Origin: Bdellovibrionota bacterium
GTDB lineage: Bacteria; Bdellovibrionota_C; UBA2361; OMII01
DNA length: 64,000 nucleotides
Assembly (NCBI GenBank): GCA_044345405.1
Contig: JBIJBE010000006.1
Span: 40,682 to 104,681, forward strand
Reading direction: 5' to 3'
Shown here piece by piece: positions 11,026 through 20,787 of this stretch. The position numbers and the translations under genes were made by a program. The notes below the pieces were generated by a model. The model ran no database searches, was not told where the DNA came from, and saw only the letters and a program-made list of their open reading frames with translations. Every line of letters begins with the position of its first letter. Position 1 is the stretch's first letter.

Positions 11026-11101
11026 GCCGCCCTAGCTCAGTTGGTAGAGCACTTCATTCGTAATGAAGGGGTCGCGTGTTCGATTCACGTGGGCGGCTCC
11101 A
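11026..11101 (+). tRNA. tRNA-Thr(CGT)
   Basis: GCCGCCC/GGGCGGC acceptor stem, D arm AGCTCAGTTGGTAGAGC, anticodon arm CTTCA-TTCGTAA-TGAAG, TTCGA T loop, encoded CCA; 76 nt. Confidence 0.97.
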
Positions 11102-17140: not shown

Positions 17141-17396
17141 GTCATCATAGTGCATCCCTTTGTACACTGCGGATCGCAAGAGGTTCTGGGCAAGGGCAAG
17201 GGAGCCAGGAGGCTAAATACCGTTCTATTTCAACACCCTGTAGTACGACTCAAACCGATGAGCTCTCATACCGGTAATAAAGGTCATGGCCCTTCTCGTG
17301 GTTTTTAGTCACCTAAAAAGGCCTAAGCCTTGTTCTGCCTAGCTCATCATGTCACGATCGAGGCCCGGTTAATTGTATACGTACGCAGAAGGAACC

Positions 17397-18287
17397 ATGT
17401 ACCACGGAGATGTTGAGAATAAGAACGAGCCATTCAGCTTCATGAATATCGTCAAGCAGGGAGTGTTCTGGTCTGTACACCTCGCCTGCCTTGCGGTCAT
17501 CTGGGTTGGTTGGAGCTGGACCGCGGTAACGGTATGTCTCGCCCTCTACGTGATACGTATGTTCGCGATTACGGGCGTTTATCATCGCTACTTCTCGCAC
17601 CGGTCGTACGACACAAGCAGGGTGTTTCAATTTCTCTTGGCGTTACTTGGAACCACAGCGGCTCAGAAGGGACCGATCTGGTGGGCCTCGCACCACCGCC
17701 ATCACCACCGTCACTCAGACACCGAAGAAGATATTCACTCACCGATCGTTCACGGTATCTACTTCTCGCATATCGGTTGGGTGTTGAGCTCTCAGTTCCT
17801 TGAGCCCCGCCTCGACCTCGTCAAGGATCTCACGAAATACAAAGAGCTCACCATTCTTGAGAAGTACAATGTGATTCCGGTGGTCCTTCTCGCGGTGTGC
17901 ACATTCTTCCTTGGAGTGTATCTCCAGAGCGCGCATCCCGAGCTTGGAACAAACGGTTGGCAGATGCTCGTATGGGGCTTCTTCATCAGCACCGTGCTGC
18001 TCTACCACGGCACGTTCTGCATCAACTCATTTACTCACCTGATTGGAAAGCGGCGATTCCCTTCCACCGACCACAGCCGCAACCACTGGTTCTTGGCCCT
18101 GATAACTCTCGGCGAAGGATGGCACAACAATCACCACTACTATCCTGGTTCAGAGCGCCAGGGCTTCTACTGGTGGGAGATCGATGTCTCGCACTACATC
18201 TTAAAGGTGCTCTCATGGTTCGGCTTGGTATGGAATCTTCGCGTTCCTCCACAGCGTGTCTATGAGGCCGCTGGAAAGCTTTCGTAG
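17397..18287 (+). CDS. Acyl-CoA/acyl-lipid delta-9 desaturase
   Basis: His boxes HRYFSH, HRHHH, GEGWHNNHH; AAGGA RBS before ATG 17397. Confidence 0.93.
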   Translation: MYHGDVENKNEPFSFMNIVKQGVFWSVHLACLAVIWVGWSWTAVTVCLALYVIRMFAITGVYHRYFSHRSYDTSRVFQFLLALLGTTAAQKGPIWWASHHRHHHRHSDTEEDIHSPIVHGIYFSHIGWVLSSQFLEPRLDLVKDLTKYKELTILEKYNVIPVVLLAVCTFFLGVYLQSAHPELGTNGWQMLVWGFFISTVLLYHGTFCINSFTHLIGKRRFPSTDHSRNHWFLALITLGEGWHNNHHYYPGSERQGFYWWEIDVSHYILKVLSWFGLVWNLRVPPQRVYEAAGKLS

Positions 18288-18347
18288 TTTGTTTTCACTA
18301 TGAGGCGAGTCATCGCGGCATCTCGCGTCCCGCGGTACCTTCACACT

Positions 18348-18580
18348 CATAAGAACGTAGGGAAGGCCGTTACACAGCTCACCCTGAGTAATGGACGATT
18401 AGATTGCTCCTTCGCTTGTCGAGGGAGATTGGTTCCCCAGTTGGTTTAATCACTAGATTGAGCCGTTCAGTAGAGGGACTAAGCCGGGAATGCCTACGAT
18501 ACTGCTGAGGTAGTAGGTACCGGTGATCTAATGAACTCTGCGCTCGGAACCCGACTATAACTGGTAGTCGGGTTTTTTTT
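18348..18580 (+). ncRNA. Unassigned structured RNA candidate, copy 1 (includes terminator 18548-18580)
   Basis: Multiple helices and two pseudoknots supported by copy-to-copy covariation; 5' end inferred. Confidence 0.7.
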
Positions 18581-18717
18581 ACCTCCATGCCGGACACATG
18601 AGCCAACGTGACCGACGATGAAGCGCACAAGCTATAGGTCGCTGGGTAAATTTCGTAAATTGTTTTCAACCTAATCCCAATCATCGCGGCATCTCGCGTC
18701 CCGCGGTACCTTCACAA

Positions 18718-18949
18718 TCACAGAACGCAGGGAAGGCTGTTACTCAGCTCACCCTGAGTAATGGACGATTAGGTTGCTCCTTCGTTTACCGAGGGAGATT
18801 GGTTCCCCAGTTGGTCTAGCCTAAAAATTAGATCGTTCAGTAGAGGAACTAAGCCGGGGATGCCTGCGATACTACTGAGGTAGTAGGTACCGGTGGTCTA
18901 ATGAACTCTGCGCTCGGAACCCGACTATAACTGGTAGTCGGGTTTTTTT
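18718..18949 (+). ncRNA. Unassigned structured RNA candidate, copy 2 (includes terminator 18918-18949)
   Basis: Same helices with compensatory changes; ends aacccgactat-aact-ggtagtcgggtt plus T run. Confidence 0.7.
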
Positions 18950-18976
18950 ACCTCCATGCCGGACACATGAGGAGCC

Positions 18977-20041
18977 GTGACCGACGATGAAGCGCACAAG
19001 CTATCAATTCGGGAACCGTACCTTCCGTACAGTCAGTCACTAGCGCTAGGACTCACCACTCTGTGGTTTATCTATCTCTGCGCCTCGATCGTTAAGCCGT
19101 TTTTTTCGGTGCTCGCATGGTCACTCGCGCTCGCGGTAGCTTCCTATCCCGTCTCATCGTGGCTTAAACAACGAATTCGCAGTCGTTCGCTCGCCTCATT
19201 TCTCGCGCTTACCCTCGCGACAGTTGTTATCTTTGTTCCGACGCTATGGGTATTGCGGATCCTTATTAACGCCGCGGCTGAGAATATCACGAGCGTCATT
19301 CAACAGTCCGGCCTGCGTGTATGGCTCGATCCTACGACGGCCCCTCCCCGCCTCGCCCCGCTCATGGTGTGGCTTGAGCAATCGCTCCATCTCCAACAGC
19401 TCGTCACTGATTTCGTGGCATCGGTGGGGCAGCGGTTACCTCAACTTATTACGATGTCGCTGATCGGACTTGTTCAGGTTTTGTTGATACTCTTCACCAC
19501 ATTTTTCTTTATGAGAGACGGAGAGCTCTTCTTCTCTTACCTCAAATGGGGAGTCCCGCTCCCTGAACAACAAACGGAGAAGGCGGTGTTTAGGGTGCTC
19601 GATACGGTACACGCCTGTCTCTTTGGGGTTGTCCTGATGGCGGTGCTCCAGGGGGCGCTCGGGAGCGCGATCTTTTGGTGGCTGAGGCTCCCTCAACCGG
19701 CGCTGTGGGGGATCGTGATGGGGCTGCTAGCCATAGTGCCGTACCTAGGCGCGTTTGTGATCTGGATTCCCACCGCTTTCGTCCTCGCTCTGCATGGAAG
19801 ATGGAGCGACGCGGTTGTGCTGGTGATATGGGGAACGATCGTCATAGGACTCGCGGACAACTTTCTCTATCCCGTTCTTGTCGGGAAGCGACTTCACTAC
19901 CACACCCTTCTCATTTTTCTCTTCATATTGGGAGGTGTGTTTGTATTCGGGAGCGCGGGGATCGTGGTGGGGCCGATCGTTCTAAGCGCGACCCACAGTC
20001 TGATCGCGTTGTGGAACGATGGGGAAATCCGTCGACGGTAA
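18977..20041 (+). CDS. AI-2E family transporter
   Basis: FFFMRDG, AIVPYLGAF, ADNFLYPVLVG, GIVVGP; AGGAG RBS before GTG. Confidence 0.92.
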   Translation: MTDDEAHKLSIREPYLPYSQSLALGLTTLWFIYLCASIVKPFFSVLAWSLALAVASYPVSSWLKQRIRSRSLASFLALTLATVVIFVPTLWVLRILINAAAENITSVIQQSGLRVWLDPTTAPPRLAPLMVWLEQSLHLQQLVTDFVASVGQRLPQLITMSLIGLVQVLLILFTTFFFMRDGELFFSYLKWGVPLPEQQTEKAVFRVLDTVHACLFGVVLMAVLQGALGSAIFWWLRLPQPALWGIVMGLLAIVPYLGAFVIWIPTAFVLALHGRWSDAVVLVIWGTIVIGLADNFLYPVLVGKRLHYHTLLIFLFILGGVFVFGSAGIVVGPIVLSATHSLIALWNDGEIRRR

Positions 20042-20100
20042 AACGAAAACCGTCGACGGTTACCGTCAGACGTCCTACGCCGGACGTCTACGTCATCGTT
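20029..20100. repeat. Dispersed GTCGAC-rich element, copy 2
   Basis: ccgtcgacggtaaaacgaaaaccgtcgacggttaccg...; reverse complement aligns to 17063-17140. Confidence 0.65.
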
Positions 20101-20114
20101 TCGCCCTCCGTGCC

Positions 20115-20684
20115 TTAGTGCGCGGATGGTTGCTCAGATGGTGCCTCTCCTCGCCCCTTCCCCGCCGGCTTTTCAAGTTGTCGCGGAGCGCCCGGCTGGA
20201 CCTGAATACGTCGGGCTTGCAGACGGGACTGCTCGGTTTTTGGCAGAGATACGGTGAGCACTCCTCGGTCGAAGTTCGCCTGTATCTGACTCTCCTGGAC
20301 TTCTACCCGAAGGGGGATTCGTCGCTCAAACGCGCCATATCTCCACTCGGAGTAGCGGGCGCCACGGATCTTCGACTCACGTTGCTCCTCCTCTTTCTTT
20401 TCACCTTTAAGAACGAGGTAGCCTGGCTCGAAGGTGACCTCGATATCGCTCTCCTTCATGCCAGGAAGCTCTGCCTGGACTCGGATCTCTCGCTCATCCT
20501 CCGACACGGAGACCTCGGGTTGAAACTCGCGCTGACGAATGGACGAGACTCCGACCGGCTCCCACACGTCCTGAAGCGCGGAGTTAATCGCTCGGCGCAT
20601 CTGACGAATAATCGGGGCGAAATCACTGCCAAAGAACTCTTGTGGAATAAGTGGGTACTCACTGCGTGGCATAGAAACCTCCAT
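20115..20684 (-). CDS. Hsp20/alpha-crystallin small heat shock protein
   Basis: AELPGM, LKGEK, YGAFERRIPL, ANFDRGVLTVSLPK. Confidence 0.93.
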   Translation of the reverse strand: MEVSMPRSEYPLIPQEFFGSDFAPIIRQMRRAINSALQDVWEPVGVSSIRQREFQPEVSVSEDEREIRVQAELPGMKESDIEVTFEPGYLVLKGEKKEEEQRESKIRGARYSEWRYGAFERRIPLRVEVQESQIQANFDRGVLTVSLPKTEQSRLQARRIQVQPGAPRQLEKPAGKGRGEAPSEQPSAH

Positions 20685-20787
20685 AGGTACATAGTTTAGC
20701 TCGGGAACATTCCCGCACTAGGAGGGTACCGTTGAACTTCGACGCCGCTCATGACTGAGGTCATTTGCGGAGGGCGCGCTGAGTTCG

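Follow-up and report, generated by a model that had tools for sequence, protein, structure and literature searches.

We examined a tandem pair of structured RNA copies in a 64,000-nucleotide (nt) stretch of DNA from a Bdellovibrionota bacterium (assembly GCA_044345405.1, contig JBIJBE010000006.1; hereafter the window, to which all coordinates refer). The pair sits between a fatty acid desaturase gene and the gene of an AI-2E family transporter, which is followed by a convergent Hsp20 gene (Table 1), and it belongs to a real, transcribed and previously uncatalogued structured RNA family. An earlier note, made from the sequence alone, had described a tandem pair at this place, and the two copies do indeed lie in two head-to-tail repeat units with a period of 369–371 nt, which are 90% identical in their 228-nt RNA part and 92% identical over the full unit (MAFFT). 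Each unit ends with the first 9–10 codons of the AI-2E gene, and unit 2 alone continues into the full gene. Tandem Repeats Finder was silent on this repeat, which, at 90% identity, falls short of two full extra copies. The genome itself (3.59 Mb, 99.4% complete) contains just these two copies.

In each copy, approximately 80% of the core is held in helices. Helix P1 is outermost and closes the P2 hairpin and P3; P3 in turn encloses P4, P5/P5a and P6/P6a, and one pseudoknot joins the strand 3′ of P5a to the P6a loop. Folding z-scores, calculated from single-sequence folds, were −4.4 for copy 1 and −3.6 for copy 2. G-U pairs are frequent throughout the fold, which fixes the strand as +, in line with the polarity that the earlier note had derived from G-U use and the terminator.

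The fold was evaluated over 15 distinct homologues (85 pairs, 1258 pair cells, 500 shuffles). Standard pairing was observed in 96.7% of the pair cells, a value flattered, as are the other pairing figures, by an alignment that was itself fitted to a covariance model, and fell to 32–43% in the control in which the 3′ partners were slid. Double-sided changes occurred at 37 of the 85 pairs, none of the 500 shuffles matched any of five measures, and double changes were abundant even so in G014, G024, G026 and L039. With regard to individual helices, P1 (gaacgtaggg/ctctgcgctc) was paired in 99.3% of cells, P6a (gcctac/gtaggt) in 100%, with double changes in five of its six pairs, and the pseudoknot in 94.2%, with double changes in three of eight; as read from the alignment, its last two pairs fit in G024 and G026 after a shift of two columns. 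The helix of the terminator that follows was paired in 97.3%. The segment is a structured RNA with real covariation, and what had been proposed from a comparison of the two copies holds, with the exception of one helix, across the homologues.

Six of the seven pairings in the earlier note were right. In particular, ccgttacacag/ctgagtaatgg, ctccttcg/cgagggag, ttggttcc/gggactaa and the hairpin tggtttaa/ttgagccg reappear in the homologues as P2, P4, P5 and P5a, respectively. The two long-range pairings that had been thought to cross the closing helix also form, ttcagtag/ctgctgag as the pseudoknot and attagatt/gatctaat as P3; however, once P1 is taken as the closing helix, P3 is nested and does not cross it, so that the fold holds one pseudoknot and not the two that had been claimed. 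The exception is the closing helix originally proposed, cgtagg/cctacg, which excludes P1 and P6a: double changes affect two of its six pairs, as they do in 171 of the 500 shuffles. This helix (alignment columns 13–18/154–159) is compatible with 93.3% of cells, with one column pair truly covarying; it contains C·A in G030 and M038 and is weak in G014. It is possibly an alternative conformer or a folding intermediate.

As a separate observation, contigs from three river metatranscriptomes have C for T at window position 18861, between P6 and P6a of copy 2. G020 and G030 also have C at the equivalent position, and this is probably a strain variant.

Transcription of the locus in lakes and rivers was followed in metatranscriptomes. 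Six runs contain 35–43% of the sampled words of a 721-nt query, and four of them, each from a different study, were compared over 17300–20100 as contigs. RNA contigs covered 18366–18543 or 18418–18604, plus 18735–18912, with 0–1 mismatches and 99–100% identity; contig starts lay at 18366–18378, and the top word depth was 56.7 for copy 1 and 99.6 for copy 2. By contrast, the desaturase gene was represented by pieces of 32–36 nt alone, which ran on into unlike sequence and carried three mismatches in three of four distinct placements (including 17500–17533 and 17958–17993; 18106–18137 had none), and no contig from the four runs fell in the AI-2E gene. Uncovered stretches prove nothing by themselves and serve here as a contrast with the RNA cores covered in the same runs. 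Since carry-over of DNA would cover the flanks equally, the core is transcribed well above its neighbours. Both copies, whose transcripts the earlier note had proposed to look for, are transcribed, and well above the flanking genes.

Table 1. Features of the RNA locus and its neighbours (window coordinates).
Feature	Position	Strand	Details
Fatty acid desaturase gene	17373..18287	+	usual upstream neighbour of the RNA
Repeat unit 1	18265..18635	+	3′-terminal 23 nt of desaturase, promoter-like region, RNA copy 1, terminator, AI-2E stub
Dyad, copy 1	18301..18313	+	TGA-N6-TCAT
−10-like box, copy 1	18336..18341	+	TACCTT
Putative transcription start, copy 1	~18345–18349	+	
RNA copy 1 core	18353..18545	+	P1 18353–18362/18536–18545; P2 18367–18377/18384–18394; P3 18398–18405/18525–18532; P4 18407–18414/18420–18427; P5 18429–18436/18475–18482; P5a 18442–18451/18456–18465; P6 18483–18487/18520–18524; P6a 18492–18497/18513–18518
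Pseudoknot, copy 1	18466–18473 with 18502–18509	+	ttcagtag with ctgctgag (P6a loop)
Intrinsic terminator, copy 1	18546..18580	+	13-pair hairpin, then T8; scan match 18546–18576
AI-2E start stub in unit 1	18607 (GTG)	+	TAG after 9 codons
Repeat unit 2	18636..19004	+	content as unit 1; continues into the genuine AI-2E gene
Dyad, copy 2	18672–18684	+	TAA-N6-TCAT
−10-like box, copy 2	18707–18712	+	TACCTT
Putative transcription start, copy 2	~18716–18720	+	
RNA copy 2 core	18723..18915	+	same helices, copy-1 coordinates plus 370
Intrinsic terminator, copy 2	18916..18950	+	same hairpin, then T7
AI-2E family transporter gene	18977..20041	+	GTG 18977, 27 nt past terminator 2
Hsp20 gene	20115..20684	−	convergent
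Hsp20 promoter-like region	20721..20764	−	ATGA-N6-TCAT, 22 nt, TACCCT; same dyad and spacing as the RNA

With regard to known families, the RNA matched none of the 4227 models of Rfam 15, for which the gathering score or E ≤ 10 was used as the threshold. The sole match in the window was a transfer RNA (tRNA) at 11026–11098; in the RNA region, terminator look-alikes alone appeared at E ≤ 10, the best being NsiR1 with 22.9 bits against a gathering score of 39, which spans just the terminator. No match at E ≤ 0.5 was found in 17 related loci, and ARAGORN reported no tRNA or transfer-messenger RNA gene in 18200–19100. The RNA therefore joins no known family, in line with the earlier note, which had not recognised it, and no family membership can be claimed. 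A description of it was not found in the literature on AI-2E riboswitches or on noncoding RNA of Bdellovibrionota, which does not prove that it is unpublished.

Two candidate identities were rejected. The end of an insertion sequence or mobile element, which the earlier note had also considered, does not fit: the two copies are alone and in tandem, synteny is genus-wide, and nothing matched in phage and plasmid collections. An identity with 6S RNA was discarded because RF00013 did not match in the region and the covariation-backed fold is multi-branched and not rod-like. RF00013 matched neither the genome itself nor any of the other members of the order, 91 genomes having been searched, while four control genomes matched; since the whole order lacks a match, this silence is uninformative about the RNA studied here. 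The 6S RNA of this order may itself have diverged beyond the reach of RF00013. The model of the cyclic di-GMP-I (c-di-GMP-I) riboswitch likewise had no match in the genome, but its control matched in no genome either, which makes this result equally uninformative.

By BLAST, relatives of the RNA were recovered from 8 of the 34 further genomes available for the genus. A covariance model (R1) matched strongly at 11 places in 10 genomes, the divergent G024 and G026 among them, and pattern scans of GTDB contigs and metagenome contigs added L037, L038 and L039. Strong matches are restricted to one genus of metagenome-assembled genomes titled Bdellovibrionota, whose sample names indicate lakes and rivers; in searches of 91 genomes of the order and of 124 genomes of the phylum (64 genera), no strong match lay beyond it. 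Thirty genomes of the genus were examined at the desaturase orthologue, and in 26 of them a structured element of approximately 200 nt with a terminator lies 3′ of that gene; many of these 26 loci look unlike the RNA studied here. In the sister genus and two other families, nothing comparable was found 3′ of the best desaturase match.

The loci of the genus were grouped into classes. The six genomes of class B have the same helix order, with double changes in 14 of 69 pairs, and a second covariance model (R2) matched class B over its full length with 23–36 bits, class G with 27–31 bits and class F with 15–17 bits. In classes C, D and E, which were assigned by synteny, a shared promoter-like region and 5′/3′ frames judged by eye, the terminator portion alone matched R2. 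The P2 loop reads GCUCACC in 13 of the 15 class A sequences and GCUUACC in G014 and in copy 2 of L037; between classes, both its sequence and the inner core vary, while the terminator stems covary. Altogether, the P1-P2-P3 frame and the terminator appear to be retained across the family, whereas its inner domain changes fast.

The metagenome contig L037, which is 89% identical to the window, also carries both copies. Identity is higher between orthologous copies (97.0% for copy 1, 93.9% for copy 2) than between paralogous ones (84–87%), which places the duplication before the split between the window and L037. Judged by these identities, the duplication is an old one, and neither copy has been lost since. 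In the same comparison, the RNA cores are better conserved than the DNA around them.

A promoter-like region and a terminator are present in each unit, and both copies are covered by RNA contigs, as would be expected if each copy were a separate gene, which the earlier note had suggested. Of the promoter proposed there (TCGCGG-N17-TACCTT), the TACCTT part stood as a conserved −10-like box, whereas TCGCGG is not conserved and the conserved upstream element is instead the dyad TGA-N6-TCAT. A standard sigma-70 promoter scan found no site in 18200–19100. Of the 26 RNA loci listed, 25 have TCAT at 26 nt ahead of a TAYNNT box; the upstream TGA half-site is kept in 15 of 24 loci, and a TG-extended −10 is present in 15 of 26. 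A dyad near −41.5 combined with a −10 box and no −35 is the geometry of class II promoters activated by CRP/FNR-type regulators. At L046/G014, approximately 150 extra bases separate the desaturase stop from the promoter-like region of the RNA.

The same dyad, at the same spacing, precedes the Hsp20 gene. When a matrix built from the RNA promoter sites was run genome-wide, the Hsp20 site, 38 nt before the Hsp20 start, ranked third, right behind both RNA copies. A strict pattern had 12 matches in the genome, three of them intergenic: RNA copy 1, Hsp20 and an open reading frame (ORF) for a Cys-rich protein of 77 amino acids. Furthermore, the dyad occurs at this spacing in 10 of 12 Hsp20 upstream regions of other genomes. 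These promoter-like sequences suggest that the RNA and Hsp20 are under common control, in a small stress regulon.

Several further observations concern this group of genes. The motif also stands before a secreted BON-domain protein, where the matrix gave a further match, and the 77-residue Cys-rich protein (G000, C45:1398–1441, −, and C83:46963–47003, +), the latter having a weak metallothionein match (E 0.005). The 5′ untranslated region of Hsp20 (20700–20764, −) contains a perfect palindrome, CGGGAATGTTCCCG, near-kept in 9 of 12 genomes, which may serve as an operator or form a hairpin in the RNA. An ORF of 226 amino acids at 20019–20699 (+) was rejected as a real gene; it belongs to no family and is a shadow of Hsp20 on the opposite strand.

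Based on these results, we consider a stand-alone, stress-linked RNA acting through its fold to be the best explanation, with a probability of roughly 0.6. Each repeat unit would be a separate gene for a structured RNA of approximately 190–200 nt, whose transcription would start a few bases past TACCTT, without a −35 element, behind the TGA-N6-TCAT dyad. The dyad, centred about 41 bases ahead of this putative start, would match the layout of promoters that a dimeric CRP/FNR-type regulator activates, and transcription would stop at the strong intrinsic terminator. The RNA would then be free and abundant and would act by means of its fold, probably by binding a protein or small ligand as a platform or sponge; it may belong to a small stress regulon together with the neighbouring Hsp20. 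As a by-product, in this genome and those closely related to it, the AI-2E gene would probably be transcribed by read-through alone. Of the roles that the earlier note had listed, that of a trans-acting RNA fits best, with the RNA standing alone and acting elsewhere than at its own gene.

This explanation is supported by the structure, transcription, promoter-like sequences and duplication described above, and by the independence of the RNA from both neighbours. Five genomes keep the RNA and its terminator without an AI-2E gene: G003 and G029 (class C), G032 and G034 (class F) and G026 (class A). In the first four, the convergent Hsp20 gene comes directly after the terminator, and in G026 it follows a 475-nt spacer with no AI-2E gene there. 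The two class F genomes among them show compensatory changes in 6 of 55 pairs. On the other side, the desaturase is 3.5 kb away in G024, with a divergent gene between, and on a different contig in G026. Since the RNA requires neither neighbour, it is better read as a gene that stands alone. As a side observation, the G026 spacer (L021/L033 1234–1707), at the expected AI-2E place, is non-coding and holds a short imperfect tandem repeat, ttcagtgctccgcacta.gtatc.

A number of points weigh against the stand-alone explanation. Junction and loop bases are constant while the stems covary, as is also seen in aptamers, and in nine class A loci the AI-2E start lies approximately 27 nt past the T run, which resembles a riboswitch leader. 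One contig (18418–18604, depth 2.5) crosses terminator 1, which regulated read-through would fit, and metatranscriptome contigs give neither strand nor exact ends nor true abundance. The dyad centre falls at about −41.5 if transcription starts, as assumed, approximately 7 nt past the box. With regard to the regulon, the motif is short and 9 of the 12 strict pattern matches lie inside ORFs, and a scan of the 10 neighbouring ORFs revealed no gene for a regulator. Finally, the mode of action of the RNA is one that we infer.

The main rival is a classical cis-acting riboswitch or attenuator, suggested in the earlier note, in which the fold would be the aptamer and the terminator the expression platform gating AI-2E, with the tandem copies sharpening the response. 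The arrangement of fold, terminator and AI-2E start in class A, where no promoter-like site was found between the T run and the start, the aptamer-like pattern of constant bases and the contig that spans terminator 1 are all in its favour, and the cgtagg/cctacg helix could be a second conformer. Without a promoter-like site before AI-2E, the transporter probably depends on read-through. The five genomes that lack AI-2E, the differences in the inner core between classes and the failure to find the RNA beyond the genus among 124 genomes of the phylum speak against a riboswitch, and the RNA contigs lie over the core and not over the transporter gene. Furthermore, the 3′ strand of P1 stops 1 nt before the terminator stem, so that the two do not overlap, and no conserved pairing competing with the terminator was seen by eye in the alignment, in which no systematic search was made; the one antiterminator-like pairing seen, ggttcc/ggaacc, is, again by eye, lost in G014 and G024. 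The suggestion is thereby weakened, and we regard it as unlikely. A related observation concerns the stretch after the terminator (18581–18635 and 18951–19004; gccggacacatgag..., running into the first AI-2E codons), which is near-invariant in nine class A loci and outdoes in conservation its AI-2E protein (72–82% identity); within it, ccuccaug could, by eye, pair with caugagg and mask a weak ribosome-binding site of AI-2E. Copy 2 is missing from the terminator scan on account of its T run, which is a base shorter than that of copy 1.

The remaining alternatives are less probable still. A base-pairing regulatory RNA, in which a single-stranded loop such as the P2 loop GCUCACC would pair with target messenger RNAs (mRNAs), would agree with a promoter-like region and terminator of its own, kept without the neighbours, and with the near-constancy of that loop in class A; but most of the core is locked in helices and the P2 loop differs between classes, so that there is no common seed, and we give this alternative little credence. 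That the RNA is a 3′ untranslated element of the desaturase mRNA, serving its stability or processing and having no transcription of its own, is very improbable. The 13 nt between stop and dyad, with no terminator between, and the desaturase synteny kept in 26 of the 30 loci examined would suit such an element, whereas its detachment from the desaturase in G024 and G026, the conserved dyad and −10 box, and RNA contigs that stop short of the desaturase gene would not, and copy 2 lies behind terminator 1, yet has equal or higher contig depth. Least probable of all is a self-cleaving ribozyme or self-processing RNA with its 3′ end just past P1, a role that the earlier note had also mentioned and which found no support. 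Contigs of three studies do end at 18542/18543, and in run X16 adapter letters come directly after 18542 and 18912, which hints weakly that the RNA may end ahead of the terminator hairpin; however, poor priming of complementary DNA in that stable hairpin could explain the stop, one contig reaches 18604, and no Rfam ribozyme family matches.

A comparison with known RNAs places these readings in context. The raiA motif RNA is approximately 200 nt long, with a complex pseudoknotted fold and links to stress and stationary-phase genes; size, fold and a stress link are thus shared, whereas phylum, architecture and gene neighbours differ and no Rfam match was found at E ≤ 10. 6S RNA forms a long rod with a central bubble; it resembles the RNA in its similar size, abundance, own gene and fast sequence evolution, and differs from it in that the latter is multi-branched with a pseudoknot and unmatched by RF00013. 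FnrS and CyaR of Escherichia coli are short, regulator-activated, Hfq-dependent pairing RNAs; they have in common with the RNA a small gene running from promoter to terminator with a TGA-N6-TCA-type dyad at the −35 place, while the RNA is large and tightly folded and its regulator and start are putative. Terminator riboswitches share the multi-helix fold, conserved junctions and a terminator followed, in class A, by a gene start, but here the downstream gene is absent in five genomes, no mutually exclusive pairing with the terminator was found by eye, the inner core varies, and the RNA is limited to one genus. The closest analogue, in function alone, is merRNA of Bdellovibrio bacteriovorus: the report on it (PMC3627812) describes a 445-nt RNA that contains a c-di-GMP riboswitch and is proposed to be a sponge, whose expression resembles that of a structural RNA more than that of a leader, with narrow conservation and no dependable downstream gene. 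On that description, both are structured RNAs of a Bdellovibrio-type bacterium, narrowly conserved and with no dependable downstream gene; they differ in that merRNA has a known aptamer whereas none was matched here, and abundance is taken here from contig depth alone.

A bolder version of the stand-alone explanation, which we put forward tentatively and consider doubtful, is that of a new, abundant and fast-evolving RNA class with a fixed P1-P2-P3 frame and a swapped inner domain, which would be co-induced with Hsp20 and the BON-domain protein by one stress regulator and would globally sequester a protein or second messenger, thereby filling the functional place of 6S RNA or merRNA in a little-studied phylum of predatory bacteria.

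The RNA is restricted to one uncultured genus, which limits the significance of the finding. Within that limit, few bacterial RNAs of this size unite a covariation-backed complex fold, a pseudoknot and natural transcription while having no family assignment. The dyad common to the RNA and the Hsp20 promoter provides a regulatory handle, the differing inner cores in one frame within a genus and the five genomes without the downstream gene constitute a natural experiment, and the retained tandem duplicate adds further testability. The RNA therefore opens tests of how structured RNAs may evolve fast while their function is kept, and lets one ask whether Bdellovibrionota use abundant orphan RNAs as regulators of stress or of their life cycle.

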